A DNA stretch of 32,000 bases from Acaryochloris marina MBIC11017 (GTDB lineage: Bacteria > Cyanobacteriota > Cyanobacteriia > Thermosynechococcales > Thermosynechococcaceae). Shown here piece after piece: positions 9,654-16,932 of the stretch (the stretch's first letter is position 1; each line of letters starts with the position of its first letter). The notes beneath the pieces are model-generated. The model was not told the origin of the DNA. It searched no databases and saw nothing but the letters and a program-made list of their open reading frames with translations. The position numbers and the translations under genes are program-made. The stretch spans positions 570,001-602,000 of the forward strand of contig NC_009925.1 of assembly GCF_000018105.1 (NCBI RefSeq). Direction: 5' to 3'.

Positions 9654-11450
9654 TCAGGAAAGAGGCTGTAAACCATAGAGCAGAATAATCAGCGGCGGAG
9701 TAATGAGCGCCATGAGCAGACTTAAGGGGCCGCCCACTCGCAGAAAATCGAGGAAGCGATACCCTCCCGTTCCGTAGACCATTGTGTTGGTTTGATAACC
9801 AATCGGGGTCATAAAGCTGTTCGAGGCTGCAAACGTGACGACAAACATAAAGGCAAAGGGGTTGTAGCCTAGCTCTTGGGCAACTTGGACTGCCACAGGC
9901 AATAGCAAAATAACCGTGGCGTTGTTGGAGAGAATCTCCGTCAGCAGTGCCGTGAGGACAAAAAACAGCGTGAGCAGCCAATAGCCGGATAATTGTCCCC
10001 CCACCGAAATTAATTGATCCGCTAACAGTTGGGTGGCGCCAGACTTTTTCATGGCAATGCCTAAGGGGAATAAGCCCGCGAGCAGGAATACCACATCCCA
10101 ACGAACCGCTCGATAGAGTTCACCTGGTTTTAGACAGCCCGTCAAGACCATTAGCATCACCCCAGCTAAGGCCGTGACGGCAATGGAAAACCGTTTGGTG
10201 CCGGCGACCCCCACGACCAGGAGACCAATTGCGATCGCAATCCACGCTTTGTCCCGGCGCAGGTTCTCAACATCCCGCTGTTCCATAACCAATAGGTCTT
10301 TGCTGGTCTGCAAACCCACTAAACTTTGCTTCGGTCCTTGCACCAATAGCAAGTCACCAAATCGGAGTCGTACCTTTCCTAACCGATCTCGGACTAACTC
10401 TTGCCCCCGTCGAATCGCCAACACCGTACAGTTGTAACGTTGGCGAAACCGCAAATCTTTAAGGGTCGAACCAATCAGGTTGGAATCCGCCAGTACCATG
10501 GCTTCAGCTGCCCCTTCTTCTGCACTTAAATCGGCTTGCCAGGATTTTTGGCCAAATTGCACATCTGGCAGAATTTCTAGACCCTGGCCATCCCGAATTT
10601 TTAACAGATCTTCCCGTCCCCCACGCACGAGCAAAATATCGCCAGCTGACAGGGTTTTGTCCGCTAGGGGCTGAGGGAAATGGTTGTCATCATGGATCAA
10701 CTCCAAAATGTCAACGTCATAAATTCGCTGGATCAAACTCGACTGAACGGTTTGCCCCACCAAACCTGACTGAGGGGTAATCACCACTTCACTGACATAG
10801 TCCTTCAGGCCATACCCTTGGCTCAGACTGGAAGAGGTCTTCCGATTAGGTAACAAACGATGGCCAATCGTGGCCATGTACACGAGCCCAGCGGTAAACG
10901 TACATAAACTCAGGGCCGTAAATTGGAAAATATCAAAAGAGCCTAAGCCTAGGTCAGACGATAAGCCACTGGCCAATACGCTGGTAGAGGTGCCCAGAAC
11001 GGTAATCATGCCCCCCAAAATTGTGATGTAAGACAGGGGAATCATCAATTTGGATACTGGAATGCGGCGTTGGCGACTCCAATCTTCGACAACGGGTAGG
11101 AAAACGGAGACAATCGCGACATTGTTAATGATGGCCGTAAATGGCCCGATGACAGCCCCCATAATCAGCATGTGTCGGGCGGGGCGTTTACCTCCCCATT
11201 TGAGCAAAAATTCGCTGGCCATTTGAATGGCTCCAGTCCGGGCAATGCCTGAACTAAGAATAAACATGGCCATTACGGTGATGGTGGCGGGATTACTGAA
11301 TCCTGATAACCCTTCTGCTGTGGTGACGAGTCCCAGCAGCATGAGGACGACCATAACGCAGATTGCTGTCAGATCTGGAGGTAACCATTCAAATACAAAA
11401 CAGAGTAATGTCAGTCCTGTCACCAAAAGGGTCTGAAAAATTGGCTCCAT
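9654..11450 (-). CDS. SLC13/DASS-type anion permease (ArsB/NhaD ion-transporter superfamily) with two central TrkA-C (RCK_C) domains
   Basis: 598 aa. Multi-TM halves flank two RCK_C-like segments (..VITPQSGLVGQTVQSS..GDILLVRGGREDL.. and ..VLADSNLIGSTLKDLRFRQRYNCTVLAIRRG..GDLLLVQGPKQSL..). The substrate cannot be inferred. Confidence 0.85.
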   Translation of the reverse strand: MEPIFQTLLVTGLTLLCFVFEWLPPDLTAICVMVVLMLLGLVTTAEGLSGFSNPATITVMAMFILSSGIARTGAIQMASEFLLKWGGKRPARHMLIMGAVIGPFTAIINNVAIVSVFLPVVEDWSRQRRIPVSKLMIPLSYITILGGMITVLGTSTSVLASGLSSDLGLGSFDIFQFTALSLCTFTAGLVYMATIGHRLLPNRKTSSSLSQGYGLKDYVSEVVITPQSGLVGQTVQSSLIQRIYDVDILELIHDDNHFPQPLADKTLSAGDILLVRGGREDLLKIRDGQGLEILPDVQFGQKSWQADLSAEEGAAEAMVLADSNLIGSTLKDLRFRQRYNCTVLAIRRGQELVRDRLGKVRLRFGDLLLVQGPKQSLVGLQTSKDLLVMEQRDVENLRRDKAWIAIAIGLLVVGVAGTKRFSIAVTALAGVMLMVLTGCLKPGELYRAVRWDVVFLLAGLFPLGIAMKKSGATQLLADQLISVGGQLSGYWLLTLFFVLTALLTEILSNNATVILLLPVAVQVAQELGYNPFAFMFVVTFAASNSFMTPIGYQTNTMVYGTGGYRFLDFLRVGGPLSLLMALITPPLIILLYGLQPLS

Positions 11451-11686
11451 AGAGGGACCGTCACTCCAAAAATCGCCGAAGTTGGGGGTTTGCCATCAAA
11501 CTTAAACCGCGAACTGGCCCATGCTTACGGTAGGTTCGCAAATGGTGAGTCAGGTGAGATTATCACAAACTTAAGGGTGATGGCTAGTAATGGGTAGAAT
11601 AGCAGCCCTAACTACAGATGACTAGATAACTATTTCTAAGTCATGACGGGTTCTAGACCATGACTAGGTCAGGATACTAATCTCAC

Positions 11687-12088
11687 CTAAGGGCTGACAG
11701 TCTCGACTAATGTTTTGACATGCTGCCTGACCTGATCGCGGATGGTGCGAAAGACTTCAATCGATTGACCCGCAGGATCGTCTAGTTGCCAATCTGCAAA
11801 TATCGGTCGAGTTACCCACGCCTCTGGTAGATTCACCCCACAACCGCATAAAGAAATGACGGCCTCAAAATCCTCTGGCTTAAATTCAGTTAAGGCGTTA
11901 GAGGTGTGATTGCTAATGTCGATGCCTTCTTCTTGCATCACTTGAATGGTAAGGGGATCGACTTGACTTCCGTCTAATCCTGCACTAGCCACTTCTAGCT
12001 TGTCTCCTGCCATTGATCGGGCATAACCCTCAGCCATGTGGGAACGGCGCGAATTATGCTTACAAACAAACATGATGCGTTTCATCAT
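11687..12088 (-). CDS. arsC: Arsenate reductase, LMW-PTPase-like (Synechocystis-type, three-Cys)
   Basis: IMFVCKHNSRRSHMAEG is a CX5R P-loop, and VISLCGCGVNLPEAW carries the Cys-x-Cys pair typical of the Synechocystis ArsC class. A GGGAG SD precedes the ATG, 19 nt after the acr3 stop. Confidence 0.85.
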   Translation of the reverse strand: MMKRIMFVCKHNSRRSHMAEGYARSMAGDKLEVASAGLDGSQVDPLTIQVMQEEGIDISNHTSNALTEFKPEDFEAVISLCGCGVNLPEAWVTRPIFADWQLDDPAGQSIEVFRTIRDQVRQHVKTLVETVSP

Positions 12089-12107
12089 TTACTCCCAGGA
12101 ATGTGAA

Positions 12108-13259
12108 TTAAGCCAAAGGACGAGAACAACGAGGATCTAAAAGCGTCGCTTTTTCAGGATCTCTGGGGAACCAAAAAGCCGTGCGCTTACAGACCTCAAC
12201 CAAAGCCAGCATAACGGGGACTTCGATCAGAACTCCAACCACTGTGGCTAGGGCTGCCCCCGAATTTAGTCCGAATAGCATCACAGCGGTGGCAATGGCG
12301 ACCTCAAAGTGATTGCTGGCTCCAATCAGCGCTGCTGGGGCTGCATCCTCATAGGTTAATCCCAACTTTTGAGCGATGACATAGGTTATGAGAAAGATAA
12401 AGTTCGTTTGTAAAAAGAGTGGAACTGCAATCAGAACAATATGTAGCGGGTTGTTCACGATTAATTCCCCTTTGAGGGCGAACAATAGCACCAAGGTCAC
12501 CAAAAGGGCGATCACGGCCATGGGACTGAGTCTTTTGAGAAAAACTTGTTCGAACCACTGTTGACCTTGGTGCTTCAGAATCCAGTGTCGAGAACTCATG
12601 CCCGCGATTAAAGGTAAGCCGACATAGATCAATACAGATAGCACGATGGTCTGCCAAGGCACGTCTAAATCATTGGCTGCTAATAGCCAACGTCCCAATG
12701 GGGCGTACAAAAAAAGCATGGCTAGAGAATTGACGGCAACCATTACTAAGGTATGTCCCTGATTGCTGTAGGACAGATATCCCCACATCAAGACCATGGC
12801 TGTGCAGGGGGCAATCCCTAATAAAATAGCGCCAGCAATGTAGGAATTGGCTAAGGTTATATCACTCCCGCGAACAAGTTCAGTCCCTTGCAGGAGTGGG
12901 GCAAAGAGCTGTCCTAGAAAGAACTGCGCAAATATAACCATGGTGAAGGGTTTGACGAGCCAATTGATGCCAAGGGTTAATAGCACTGGTTTTGGGGTGC
13001 GAGCTGCTCGGCGAGCTTGGCTAAAATCAATCTTGACCATGATGGGATACATCATAAAAAAGAGACACACCGCAATGGGGATAGAGACCTGGTGAATACT
13101 GGCAGCATTTAGGCTCACTGCAATTCCAGGGGCAATGCGTCCCAAAAGAATCCCCACACCAATGCATAGACCGACCCACAGGGTGAGGTAGCGTTCAAAG
13201 ACATTAAGCTGGCCCCCTGCCTGGACTGGTGGGGGAAATCGAGTTTTTTGAGTGGTCAT
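12108..13259 (-). CDS. acr3: Arsenite efflux permease, ACR3 family
   Basis: 383 aa, about 10 TM segments. [20 protein letters not shown] and [14 protein letters not shown] (conserved Cys in TM4) are ACR3 hallmarks. Immediately followed by arsC. Confidence 0.9.
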
Positions 13260-13319
13260 GACGGGTGAAGTGTTCTAGAAATAGCTCAACTTGGAAAATT
13301 TTTAAGAATCAAAAACGAT

Positions 13320-13736
13320 CTAACTTTTGCCTACGGATATTTCTTCTGCCAAGACGCCGCAATCCGTATGAATTTTCTGCTGGCTGAGTTGCTCTTCACA
13401 TCGATGAATCAGAGGCAGTAATTCTGCTTTCAGTTCTTGTAGCTGAGTAATTTTGATTTCGATCTGTTCAAGTTTTTTGCGTAACCGTTCGTGAATGTCA
13501 CAGCAAGTCAAGGTATTCCCGGCTTGTAATTGCAAGATCTCTTTAATTTCATCTAGGGTCAGCCCAAGGGTTTTAGCCCGCTCGATGAGGGATAAACGGG
13601 CCAAATCTTGATCATTGAAGACTCGATAGCCTGAGTCATTTCTTTCAGGGGCAGGAATGAGGCCAATCCGCTCATAGTAGTAGAGGGTCTGGGGGTTGAG
13701 ACCAAAGGTGCGAGCAACATCGCTAACACGGTTCAT
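13320..13736 (-). CDS. MerR-family transcriptional regulator, heavy-metal-responsive-like (Cys78, Cys79, Cys113, Cys126)
   Basis: The N-terminal wHTH MNRVSDVARTFGLNPQTLYYYERIGLIPAPERNDSGYRVFNDQDLARLSLI is canonical MerR. A long coiled-coil helix is flanked by TLTCCDIHERL and by IHRCEEQLSQQKIHTDCG. Confidence 0.9.
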   Translation of the reverse strand: MNRVSDVARTFGLNPQTLYYYERIGLIPAPERNDSGYRVFNDQDLARLSLIERAKTLGLTLDEIKEILQLQAGNTLTCCDIHERLRKKLEQIEIKITQLQELKAELLPLIHRCEEQLSQQKIHTDCGVLAEEISVGKS

Positions 13737-13764
13737 GATGGCGATAGGGATTTACACTGACTGC

Positions 13765-13796
13765 ATCATAAACCTTGTATCTGGGTATAAGGTCAA
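13765..13796 (-). promoter_or_regulatory. MerR-class promoter/operator upstream of the merR-like gene
   Basis: The minus strand reads cTTGACCttatacccagatacaaggttTATGATgc. The -35 is TTGACC (13796-13791) and the -10 is TATGAT (13770-13765). The spacer is 20 nt, or 19 nt if the -10 is read as TTATGA. A 22-bp imperfect dyad ACCTTATACCC/AGATACAAGGT (13793-13772) is symmetric at 8 of 11 positions. The -10 lies about 29 nt upstream of the ATG at 13736. Confidence 0.55.
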
Positions 13797-13920
13797 GGGG
13801 GAATATGCTTGTTTGAATATGAGCCAATTTAGTTGTGCTGTGGGCTGAAATTCGTTTATTAGTGGTTTATGGTATGGATGTTGCGGGGCTAGAGGCGTTT
13901 TTCTGAAGTGGATAGTTAGT

Positions 13921-14637
13921 CTAGACCCGATAGTAGGAAGCAACGCCGGGTTGTCCTGTGGCATTTGGACCAGCACGGTCGTCGGCCCCTAAGTACTCAA
14001 AGGGGGAACTGAGCATTGCAGAGCCAGCTTTCTGAAGGACTCCAGATTGACGGTCGAACTCAAATCCTGAAGTTTGGAACCAGTTGGTTAGTTTTTTCGT
14101 GAATGCAGTCCCGTCTTGATTGAGAACGTGGTTGAGATCCAAGTTGGCGAGGAAAATGCCATTGGAGTTTAACCAAGAAACGGCTTTGGTGATCAAGCCA
14201 AGTTTGTCGCCGATGTAATGCAGTCCATAAATGCAGGTGACTAAATCGTACCGTTGGGTTGTGGTCCAGGTGTGAAGAGAAGAGACCGTCAACGTAATGG
14301 CAGGATACTGTGTGGACCTTGGATCGAAATGATCAACAAGATCAACGCCGTGAAGGGTTAGGTCATTTGTGCCGAATGCGATCGCAGCATCGATAAGGGC
14401 TCTACCACGCCCACAGCAGAGGTCGAGCCATGCTGCTTCGCCCTTCTCCTTGAGTCGGTTTTCTAATACAGTTGCTGGGTTGAGATCAAATTCTTTGCCA
14501 TAGGAGTTATCGCCCATCAGTGCCCTGTTGCGGTTCATCGTGATATTGGCAACGATATCTGACTGCTCAAGCGCTTTGTGGTCTTTCAGCTTGCTTCTAG
14601 GGTGATTAAATTCAGAATCTGTATTGTTCAAAGTCAT
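13921..14637 (-). CDS. Class I SAM-dependent methyltransferase
   Basis: Motif I is AWLDLCCGRGRALIDAA. The post-II/III region is YDLVTCIYGLHYIGD...LNSNGIFL. The ORF extends to 14763, but the ATG at 14637 (MTLNNTDSEF...) leaves a sensible divergent intergenic region with glyS. The start is uncertain. Confidence 0.8.
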   Translation of the reverse strand: MTLNNTDSEFNHPRSKLKDHKALEQSDIVANITMNRNRALMGDNSYGKEFDLNPATVLENRLKEKGEAAWLDLCCGRGRALIDAAIAFGTNDLTLHGVDLVDHFDPRSTQYPAITLTVSSLHTWTTTQRYDLVTCIYGLHYIGDKLGLITKAVSWLNSNGIFLANLDLNHVLNQDGTAFTKKLTNWFQTSGFEFDRQSGVLQKAGSAMLSSPFEYLGADDRAGPNATGQPGVASYYRV

Positions 14638-14793
14638 CCTGATCTTATCGACGATGGGCAAGGTTGGAAAATGAATCCTTGCCCTGGGGCGTTCTTGCCT
14701 AAACCTCTTCCCATTTTGCTGTAGTCCCACGATAGACTGTGTAAGCAAACCTTTGGTCTGCATATATTCGGCAATATTCCAGCGGGGTCGGTG

Positions 14794-16932
14794 ATGGCGA
14801 CGTTTTTATTAGAAGTAGGGACAGAAGAGTTGCCCGCAAGTTTTGTGGAGTCGGCGATTCAGCAATGGCGATCGCACATCCCAAACAGCCTAGAGGAACA
14901 CCTGCTCACCCCCCAATCTCTGAAGGTTTACGGCACCCCTCGACGACTGGCTATTTTGGCAGAAGGCCTGCCAGACCAGCAGCCGGACCAAACGGTCGAA
15001 GTCAAAGGTCCCCCAGCAAAAGCTGCGTTTAAGGATGGCAAACCCACCAAAGCGGCTGAAGGATTTGCCCGCAAACAGGGGGTTGAGATTAAAGATTTTG
15101 AGCTGCGCGATACGGAAAAAGGCGAATTTATTTTTGTTCAGAAAACGACTCTGGGTAAACCGGCGGTTGATGTTTTAGCCGACCTAATCCCCACCTGGAT
15201 TTTTAGCCTAGAAGGCAAGCGGTTTATGCGTTGGAGCGATGGCGAGGTAAAGTTCTCCCGCCCCATTCGCTGGTTGGTCTCGTTGCTGGACGACCATCTT
15301 ATACCTATTAAATTGGAGAATTCAACAGGTACGATATCCAGCGATCGCACTTCTTCAGGCCATCGAGTTCTGCATCCAGACCCAGTAACGATTAAGCATC
15401 CCCAAGACTATGTGGCGACCTTAGAAAAGGCTTCCGTTCAGGTGGATCCAGAGCAGCGTCAAACCCTGATCAAAGAACAGGTTCACGCCTGTGCTAAGGC
15501 CGTTAAAGGTAAGGCCGTTATTTCTGAAGATCTGCTGGCGGAAGTCACCTATTTAGTGGAATGGCCGACGGCCGTGGTGGGAGGTTTTGAGTCAGAATTT
15601 TTGGAACTGCCTGCTGAGGTGATTACAACGGAGATGGTCAGCCATCAGCGCTATTTCCCGGTGGAGGCCCCCAAGGGCGCGAAGCTCTTGCCCCACTTCA
15701 TTACTATTTCCAATGGTGATCCAGCCAAATCAGACATTATTTCATCGGGCAATGAACGGGTGATTCGGGCTCGATTAGCCGATGGTCAGTTCTTCTATAA
15801 GGCTGACCAGGCCATGCCCTTAGCAGAGTATTTGCCCAAGCTAGAGACGGTTACCTTCCAAGAAGATTTGGGGTCTGTTCGGGCCAAGGTGGATCGCATC
15901 CAGGCCAATGCCCTGTGGGTTGCAAAACAACTCCAGCTCGATCAGAAGGTGACTCAGCAAGTCGAGCGGGCAGCCCAGCTTTGTAAGGCGGATCTCGTAA
16001 CCCAAATGGTGGGCGAGTTTCCAGAACTGCAGGGGGTGATGGGGGAGAAATATGCGATCGCAAGTGGTGAACCCACCGAGATTGCCACTGCCATCGTCGA
16101 GCATTACCTGCCCAAAGGGGCCAATGACCAGCTTCCACAGACCCTGGTGGGGCAAATTGTTGGTATTGCCGATCGTCTGGATACCCTGGTCAGTATTTTT
16201 GGTCTGGGGATGATACCCACAGGGTCTTCTGACCCCTTTGCCCTGCGCCGAGCAGCCAACGCCATTCTCAATATTGTCTGGGCTGCCAATCTAGATCTCA
16301 ATCTAGACCAACTCCTGACCGAAACGACTGCTGCCTTTGCTCAGACCTTTGCTAAATTTCAGCCTGAGGTCCAACAGCTTCGAGACTTCTTTGGTCAGCG
16401 TCTCCGTAGCCTCCTGCAAGATGAGCAGACTATTGACTATGACTTGGTCAATGCCGTTTTAGGAGAAAAGGGCGAGCATACTCAGCGAGTCCTAGTGGAT
16501 GTGTTAGATGGACGCGATCGCGCCCAGTATCTGCAGACGATTCGCACCAACGGCACCTTGGATACGATCTATGAAACCGTCAATCGAGCTGCTCGCCTAG
16601 CTACCAAAGGAGATCTAGCCTCAGATGTACTGGATCCGAAGGGAGTAGTTCAGCCAAAGCTGTTTGAACAGTCTTCTGAGCAGGTCTTTTATGATGGCTT
16701 ACTCACCCTTTTACCTCAAACACAAGCGGCCCAGTCTTCGCGAGACTATCAAAAGCTGGTTCAAGGCTTAACCAAAATTGCTCCATCCGTTAGCCAATTT
16801 TTTGATGGCGACGATAGTGTCTTAGTAATAGCGGAAGATGCCGATTTACGAGCGAATCGCTTAAATTTACTAGGTCTATTACGAAATCACGCCCTCGTGC
16901 TCGGGGACTTCGGTGCGATTGTCAAAAGCTAG
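14794..16932 (+). CDS. glyS: Glycine--tRNA ligase beta subunit
   Basis: [18 protein letters not shown]..., ..TPRRLAIL.., ..SHQRYFPV.., ..[13 protein letters not shown].. are typical GlyS blocks. ATG at 14794; the track uses the GTG at 14791. Confidence 0.95.

Follow-up and report, generated by a model that had tools for sequence, protein, structure and literature searches.

A promoter spacer of 19–20 bp with a dyad between the hexamers is the hallmark of MerR-type activation by DNA distortion, and that of PzntA is 20 bp long. In the mer operons of Gram-positive bacteria, merR is the first gene of the operon that it activates, and the over-long promoter spacer holds the dyad. The sensors CueR, ZntR, CadR, and PbrR regulate P-type ATPases, and their own genes do not head the operon that carries the cargo. 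In MerR-family sensors, higher-coordination sites are marked by a Cys where the dimerization helix begins, in place of the Ser of CueR. As(III) prefers three-thiolate sites, and CgArsR uses such an inter-subunit site of three sulfurs (S3). Here we analyzed a stretch of 32,000 nucleotides of Acaryochloris marina MBIC11017 (contig NC_009925.1, positions 570,001 to 602,000; hereafter the window), in which a MerR-type regulator stands directly before acr3 and arsC, and we compared this arrangement with those of its cyanobacterial relatives.

The characterized sensors of arsenic resistance (ars) operons in the searchable literature are ArsR/SmtB repressors and one MarR-type repressor, MarR_ars of Achromobacter sp. 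As-55, an As(III)/Sb(III)-responsive regulator outside the ArsR family that represses arsV (bioRxiv 10.1101/2021.08.12.456183). In the literature covered, the characterized cyanobacterial MerR-type proteins sense Hg (Slr0701) and Co (CoaR). The Hg(II)-responsive Slr0701 of Synechocystis PCC 6803 is autoregulated, binds an inverted repeat that precedes its own gene, and regulates merA without being linked to it (PMC6741143). In a Pseudomonas, a MerR2 site was predicted upstream of arsR, which would amount to indirect cross-talk. The original prediction for this DNA, made from its letters, held that an operon of merR, acr3, and arsC controlled by its own MerR-type protein was not known to have been characterized. 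This held within the full-text literature, a scope outside which most subscription journals fall: no regulator of the MerR family was found there for which arsenic sensing or control of ars genes had been demonstrated or suggested. The passages available from reviews on cyanobacterial metal homeostasis, bacterial metallostasis, and ars gene distribution contained no MerR-type arsenic sensor, and those from the review of arsenic resistance gene distribution did not mention MerR.

An Arsenic Gene Cluster Headed by a MerR-Type Regulator

We consider it rather likely, judging from sequence comparison, that the regulator in the window is a MerR-type activator, responds to As(III)/Sb(III), and drives the expression of merR-acr3-arsC, its own gene included. 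The three open reading frames (ORFs) and the gaps between them were read again on the minus strand exactly as first described (table 1). Both components of an ars operon, the efflux permease Acr3 and the arsenate reductase ArsC, scored above the cut-offs of their NCBIfam profiles. The CX5R motif and the C-x-C pair were visible in the translation of arsC, which is of a type first described in Synechocystis. As had been claimed, the window showed no ArsR: tblastn with three ArsR/SmtB queries gave only matches with E > 0.4, and Pfam scans of the small ORFs detected no HTH_5 domain, so that the cis-encoded ArsR of ars operons is missing from these 32 kb. Neither HTH_5 nor HTH_20 was found for the regulator itself by Pfam search and tblastn. 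The mercury genes merT, merP, merF, and merA were likewise absent from the cargo at the window, and MerF and MerT occurred only in a different subclade of the family (L013, L017, L021, and others).

Linkage of Regulator and Arsenic Cargo

Loci of relatives were collected from gene-context look-ups, one GTDB genome scan, one metagenome scan, and tblastn classification. The closest relative, from Acaryochloris marina NIES-2412, was 92% identical to the window regulator and lay in the synteny glyS...merR-acr3-arsC-CitMHS. All relatives of at least 64% identity (64–92%) whose downstream DNA was read headed acr3, followed by arsC wherever the contig extended: merR-acr3-arsC was present in L001–L003, L006–L012, and L102, and merR-acr3 in L100, where the contig ended inside acr3. 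The same three genes in the same order occurred again at 51% identity (L030), which brought the order to at least 11 loci with regulator identities of 51–92%. The Acr3 proteins of the syntenic cassettes were 84–93% identical to that of the window. Considering that the regulators diverge this far, a single recently transferred island is argued against. Moreover, the genes upstream of the cassettes differed (glyS, Tmemb_14, an acetyltransferase, and Lactamase_B; at least four genomic contexts), and therefore merR-acr3-arsC travels together as one cassette. A cad, znt, or cop P-type ATPase lay beside the regulator in none of the Pfam-annotated neighborhoods. The survey thus bore out the suggestion that the adjacency of merR and ars genes is conserved and not accidental. 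A second kind of arsenic cargo was found in another Acaryochloris (L099, 61% identity), whose regulator heads an ArsJ-associated GAPDH (567 bits against 450) and ArsJ (586 against 400); gapdh-arsJ is an arsenate-resistance pair.

In neighbor-joining (NJ) trees with bootstrap on ~138 columns, the regulators with arsenic cargo all fell in one clade, whose core had a bootstrap of 95%. Only clade-level statements are drawn from these trees, because the deep nodes were weakly supported. The motif [R/K]-C-x10-T-D-C-G-[V/I]-F, with a fixed loop of 12 residues, was present in 25 of 25 protein clusters at ≥60% identity. Throughout the arsenic clade, the regulators had the invariant signature C78...R-C113-x10-[T/A]-D-C126. 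By these comparisons, the regulator and its arsenic cargo are linked by descent.

Promoter and Operator

The minus strand upstream of merR reads cTTGACCTTATACCCAGATACAAGGTTTATGATgc, which gives TTGACC and TATGAT 20 nt apart with a dyad, ACCTTATACCC/AGATACAAGGT, in the spacer. Both hexamers, the length of the spacer, and the symmetry of the dyad (8 of 11 positions) were confirmed as first reported, and the layout was conserved in relatives. When the upstream DNA of the relatives was aligned, TTGACC overlapped the left arm of ACCTTATAC-N4-GTATAAGGT and the -10 started one base past the right arm; therefore the spacer is always 20 nt. TTGACC or a near match, usually with a single base changed, stood in the same register in nearly all promoters of the family. 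A scan of all loci placed this layout of -35, operator, and -10 30–57 nt upstream of merR in nearly all cyanobacterial members, whatever their cargo. The operator arms are of the ACCTT...AAGGT type and overlap the TTGACC -35, as in PcopA.

The operator consensus built from relatives, ACCTTATACNNNNGTATAAGGT, matched the 32-kb window at this single site, with 2 mismatches, and gave 0 matches in 100 shuffles of the window; no second copy that could belong to a regulon was found in the window. A consensus scan, which captures cyanobacterial promoters poorly, found no ordinary promoter with a spacer of 16–18 nt upstream of merR on the same strand. The promoter has what heavy-metal MerR promoters have, a spacer of 19–20 bp with a dyad between the -35 and the -10, and phylogenetic footprinting indicates that a putative MerR-class promoter is conserved.

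The Regulator and Its Cysteines

The regulator opens with a MerR-type winged helix-turn-helix (HTH) (MerR_1, E = 2e-18; MerR, E = 4e-15; residues 3–69), followed by a match to MerR-DNA-bind (PF09278) at residues 45–107. It scored below the equivalog cut-offs of all four named sensor groups: CueR (TIGR02044, 99.4 bits vs 147.4), ZntR (TIGR02043, 91.1 vs 168.0), MerR (TIGR02051, 91.6 vs 150.9), and CadR/PbrR (TIGR02047, 90.0 vs 151.5). It therefore belongs to none of them, and in the NJ tree the CueR, ZntR, CadR, and MerR references split from the cyanobacterial family at 94–96% bootstrap. Profile, sequence, and fold searches all placed it in the heavy-metal branch of the MerR family, in line with its first description as a MerR-type protein.

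The best solved relative by sequence was the Hg(II) sensor MerR of Bacillus megaterium (4ua1, E = 4e-22), and in an ungapped alignment Cys78 and Cys113 fell on its Hg ligands Cys79 and Cys114. An AlphaFold2 monomer model built from 71 relatives (pLDDT 81) predicted helices at 4–10 and 15–23 and then the wing, a long helix at 78–118 that opens at Cys78 and has Cys113 near its end, a loop at 119–126 that ends at Cys126, and a last short helix at 127–133. In this model the protein would have the long dimerization helix and the short C-terminal effector loop and helix of the family. Foldseek gave CadR, CueR, and PbrR as the best structural matches (TM 0.65–0.72), with MerR lower in the list.

Cys78 and Cys126 were invariant, and Cys113 was conserved in at least 90% of the 71 relatives, so that one cysteine lies at the start of the dimerization helix and two in the C-terminal loop, as in metal ligands of this family. 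All four cysteines of the original prediction (78, 79, 113, and 126) are present. However, the Cys78-Cys79 doublet is incidental and was rejected as a family feature: among the aligned relatives, Cys79 occurred only in the window protein and P0002, and only Cys78 is kept. The likeness to the cysteine layout of MerR held for Cys78 and Cys113, which align with Hg ligands, but not for the third cysteine, which lies 13 residues after Cys113 (a 12-residue loop), compared with 8 in MerR.

The Spacers Between the Genes

A promoter or terminator of its own between merR and acr3 was sought and rejected as a candidate. Consensus scans of the 60-nt gap gave no promoter, terminator, or operator on this strand, its RNA fold had a z-score of 0.68, and an alignment of the gap from seven loci contained nothing conserved. 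In relatives, the spacer between merR and acr3 measured 0–89 nt and was not conserved in sequence, and the two ORFs overlapped in L003. Short unconserved spacers without a terminator- or promoter-like site therefore fit one merR-acr3-arsC transcript, which we infer. An Rfam scan of 11400–14900 matched no RNA family.

The 19-nt gap between acr3 and arsC carries GGGAG. The arsC gene opens with ATGATG (12085–12090, minus strand), and this Shine-Dalgarno-like motif stands 3 nt upstream of the first ATG and 6 nt upstream of the second. Alignments with homologues begin at residue 2, so translation may actually start at the second ATG (12085). In the overlapping case, a Thermosynechococcaceae metagenome-assembled genome (L003, 5001–5492, JBHJNL010000013.1), the merR ORF was 164 aa long, had a Cys-containing tail, and overlapped the start of acr3 by 4 nt; the extension could be real or an assembly frameshift.

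Table 1. Positions of the genes and promoter elements of the merR-acr3-arsC cluster in the window
Feature	Position	Strand	Details
merR-like regulator	13736..13320	-	138 aa; Pfam MerR_1, MerR, and MerR-DNA-bind matches
merR-acr3 spacer	13260..13319	-	60 nt; without recognizable promoter, terminator, or operator
acr3, ACR3-family arsenite efflux permease	13259..12108	-	383 aa; TIGR00832 422 bits vs cut-off 283
arsC, glutathione/glutaredoxin (LMWP)-type arsenate reductase, Synechocystis type	12088..11687	-	133 aa; TIGR02689 200 bits vs cut-off 158
-35 hexamer TTGACC	13791..13796	-	last three bases overlap operator left arm
22-bp dyad operator ACCTTATACCCAGATACAAGGT	13772..13793	strand-neutral	family consensus ACCTTATAC-N4-GTATAAGGT
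-10 hexamer TATGAT	13765..13770	-	20 nt downstream of -35; predicted transcription start ~13758

The Wider Cyanobacterial Family and Its Other Cargo

The family to which the regulator belongs had at least 1,408 members at E ≤ 1e-15 in many cyanobacterial genera, and the source annotations named them "heavy metal-responsive transcriptional regulator" or "mercuric resistance regulator." Cargo was counted for 66 distinct regulators with context. The most frequent, in 30 of the 66, was an MTH895/ArsE-family thioredoxin-like protein (Trx3), mostly followed by an ArsP_1 (PF03773) permease, and 3 of these 30 were MerR::thioredoxin fusions. Eleven headed acr3, arsC, or arsJ cargo. Eight headed MerF, with or without a CopZ-N-type protein, one of them as a MerR::MerF fusion followed by MerT-HMA, while 7 preceded a fatty-acid desaturase and carried two extra cysteines. 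In the sister-subclade loci, MerF scored above its equivalog cut-off. The plasmid collection contributed a single member, on a plasmid of Aulosira laxa, with Trx3-ArsP_1 cargo. At another locus (L020), a MerR::Trx3 fusion and an ArsP_1 permease immediately followed a classical arsR-acr3-arsC operon; therefore members of the family occur within ars islands and can stand alongside ArsR.

The loop signatures of the MerF-linked and Trx3/ArsP-linked subclades differed from that of the arsenic clade, and the operator and the three cysteines were common to all. A constant operator with differing loops would be expected if the effectors recognized had diverged and DNA recognition had stayed the same. 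Because a sister subclade heads MerF-type mercury cargo, the arsenic clade is best placed as a derived branch of a wider family of sensors for thiophiles. By their cargo, the subclade with ArsE-type thioredoxin and ArsP_1 may sense organoarsenicals, and the MerF subclade may sense mercury.

Several architectures in the family were observed besides. Single ORFs of MerR::MTH895/ArsE-type thioredoxin, followed by an ArsP_1 permease, were present in L020 (3986–4705), L019, L055, L059, P0064–P0068, and P0133. They were 220–247 aa long and matched Pfam MerR, MerR-DNA-bind, and Thioredoxin_3, and their NCBI names describe thioredoxin-like proteins only; such a fusion of a MerR regulator and a redox protein seems unusual. 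The 199-aa MerR::MerF fusion was found in Gloeomargaritales cyanobacterium VI4D9 (L013, 6001–6600, CP088016.1). Its MerF part is a two-helix membrane mercury transporter, and MerT-HMA and a CopZ-N-type protein lie downstream. In L017, L021, and other relatives, merR and merF were separate genes, 2–25 nt apart or overlapping, and the ORF of L013 may be a real fusion or the result of a lost stop codon.

A Pseudanabaena-like subclade (100% bootstrap; L016 5001–5474, L053, L058, L063–L066, and L070) had the same operator and always stood before a DesA-type fatty-acid desaturase. Its sensor region has five cysteines in the pattern TC...HDC...HC-x5-C-x2-C-x6-C, which suggests a different sensor, perhaps Fe-S cluster-binding or redox-responsive. 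In Anabaena sp. UHCC 0187 (L101, 5001–10402), genes for a rubrerythrin, a Rieske protein, and a P-type ATPase lay downstream of merR-Trx3-ArsP_1. At the corresponding place on plasmid2 of Aulosira laxa NIES-50 (L103, 4501–8825) were a Rieske/PetC-like protein, an FAD-dependent disulfide oxidoreductase, and a major intrinsic protein (aquaglyceroporin-like). A larger module may be conserved in Nostocales.

Proposed Mechanism and Alternative Explanations

Comparative data supported the interpretation that had been put forward for this locus, with As(III)/Sb(III) as the effector and co-transcription as its presumed features, and those of the checks suggested with it that lent themselves to computation all spoke for it. 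According to the mechanism that we propose, a dimer of the regulator would sit on the dyad ACCTTATAC-N4-GTATAAGGT between hexamers 20 bp apart, too far for efficient transcription, and in the absence of effector the promoter would be weak or repressed. Three thiolates would hold As(III), and probably Sb(III): that of Cys78 in one subunit and those of Cys113 and Cys126 in its partner. This inter-subunit site would lie where MerR binds Hg(II), but its loop has 4 more residues. Binding of the ligand would under-twist the spacer and activate transcription from ~13758 through merR, acr3, and arsC. Since merR would be on its own induced transcript, the regulator would amplify its own synthesis (positive autoregulation) alongside arsenite efflux and arsenate reduction.

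Several observations weigh against this mechanism. The arsenic role of the regulator and of all its relatives rests on the comparison of sequences. The cysteines alone do not specify arsenic, because the three of them and the operator are shared with the subclades that head MerF. The window operator is slightly degenerate, both in its mismatches to the consensus and in its symmetry, and L099, L102, and L030 join the core of the arsenic clade at weak nodes (bootstrap 36%, 60%, and 21%, respectively). An unlinked ArsR could be encoded elsewhere in the genome, as in Synechocystis, the ArsR search having covered the 32-kb window. Both sensor types can coexist, because at L020 arsR-acr3-arsC adjoins a family member that heads other cargo.

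The most serious alternative is that the regulator senses another thiophilic signal, such as Hg(II), Cd(II), Zn(II), Cu(I), or thiol and electrophile stress, and that acr3-arsC is co-induced in a broader soft-metal response in which arsenic is not the direct ligand. The cysteines and operator shared with regulators of MerF and CopZ-N-type proteins fit this explanation, as do the Hg(II) sensor as closest solved relative by sequence and the family annotations, which go no further than heavy metals and mercuric resistance. Nevertheless, we regard it as unlikely: the cargo tracks the subclade of the regulator, and all members with the TDCG signature and known context head acr3, arsC, arsJ, or ArsJ-type GAPDH, with no instance of mer, cad, znt, or cop genes. 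Moreover, the loop signatures differ by subclade, as expected with a changed effector, and regulator and arsenic cargo are kept together in unrelated genomic contexts. That this context arose by accident, with an ordinary metal-sensing MerR lying by chance upstream of an ars pair, draws only on the fact that MerR-family genes are numerous and often stand beside unrelated genes. It is contradicted by the neighborhood survey and hardly credible, given the order shared by at least 11 loci of 51–92% regulator identity with at least four different flanks, the additional merR-acr3 of L100, and the second arsenic cargo, gapdh-arsJ, of the clade.

It is also conceivable that the MerR-type promoter drives merR only, or reads through weakly, and that acr3-arsC is transcribed mainly from a promoter of its own within the 60 nt that precede it, controlled by an ArsR whose gene lies elsewhere. 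An arrangement of this sort is known: the acr3-type arsBHC operon of Synechocystis is under an unlinked arsR (PMC4284471). The window is only 32 kb of the genome, the consensus scan is poor at cyanobacterial promoters, and ArsR and a family member stand side by side at L020. On the other hand, the gap shrinks to 0 nt in relatives (range 0–89 nt), with overlapping ORFs in L003, and is unconserved, without a conserved box, promoter-like site, or terminator. In addition, the strict co-inheritance of merR and its cargo in different contexts is hard to explain without control by merR. We therefore judge a separate promoter somewhat less probable still than a different effector, though far from as improbable as an accidental neighborhood.

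Beyond the window, the arsenic-cargo branch of this cyanobacterial MerR subfamily could be an unrecognized, independently evolved class of arsenic sensors, As(III)-dependent activators with an inter-subunit tri-thiolate site, with sister subclades tuned to other thiophiles. This broader hypothesis is tentative, and we hold its chances to be a little short of even. The class would be marked by Cys78...R-C-x10-[T/A]-D-C and by the operator ACCTTATAC-N4-GTATAAGGT.

Neighboring Genes

Between glyS and the merR promoter, the window contains a gene for a 280-aa SAM-dependent methyltransferase (Methyltransf_23/12/25; 13921–14763, minus strand), and no terminator was detected between it and the promoter. 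It was considered as an ArsM and rejected: NCBIfam gave only weak generic matches (BioC, trans-aconitate methyltransferase) and no arsenic-related family. In the A. marina NIES-2412 locus (L006), the methyltransferase is missing and glyS and merR are 415 nt apart. Because this locus is otherwise syntenic, the gene is a strain-specific insertion, and it is outside the arsenic module. On the other side, a 598-aa transporter with CitMHS, Na_sulph_symp, and two TrkA_C domains (9654–11450, minus strand) follows arsC after 236 nt on the same strand. It is syntenic in A. marina NIES-2412 and lies outside the cassette in other genomes.

Significance and Comparison with Known Systems

If a MerR-type arsenic sensor exists here, ars operons would have a second mode of control, activation and not derepression, and As(III) another independent tri-thiolate site. 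The arsenic clade and its MerF-linked relatives differ mainly in the 12-residue loop, with the operator and the three cysteines in common, and this contrast would offer a tractable system for asking how three cysteines come to prefer As(III) over Hg(II). The family would then form a natural series in which a change of loop at constant DNA specificity re-targets the sensor from Hg to As. MerR-type promoters usually combine low background with a steep response, and an arsenic-specific one would suit biosensors. Moreover, names such as "heavy metal-responsive" and "mercuric resistance" would hide how arsenic resistance is regulated in a phylum in which arsenic and phosphate compete.

The ArsR/SmtB repressors (R773 ArsR, AfArsR, CgArsR, and Synechocystis ArsR) fill the same role, the control of acr3/arsB-arsC, are usually encoded by the first gene, and sense by three cysteine thiolates, as proposed for the window regulator. 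However, their fold is unrelated, and ArsR acts by derepression through release from DNA, whereas a MerR protein is an allosteric activator that works at promoters with over-long spacers. MarR_ars also differs, as a repressor of the MarR family with an unrelated fold and mechanism. Slr0701 and the window family were compared by description only, and Slr0701 was not among the named family matches. With CueR, ZntR, CadR, and PbrR the window shares the spacer of 19–20 bp, and with ZntR, CadR, and PbrR also the Cys at the start of the dimerization helix.

The nearest likeness is to the Gram-positive Hg(II) sensor MerR (Bacillus megaterium MB1/RC607; 4ua1), which has the same winged HTH, long coiled-coil helix, and C-terminal loop, with two cysteines in aligned positions and the third in the loop of both proteins. 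In contrast to Bacillus MerR, the window regulator falls below the TIGR02051 cut-off, has 12 residues and not 8 between its second and third cysteines, and faces a different operator sequence. Unlike in mer operons, the cargo is acr3-arsC, without merT, merP, or merA, and the presumed effector is oxyanion-derived As(III) and not Hg(II). The layout at the window is that of a Gram-positive mer operon in which the mercury cargo has been replaced by arsenic cargo: the scaffold, the promoter logic, and the cargo genes are all known, but their combination and the implied effector are not, within the literature searched.

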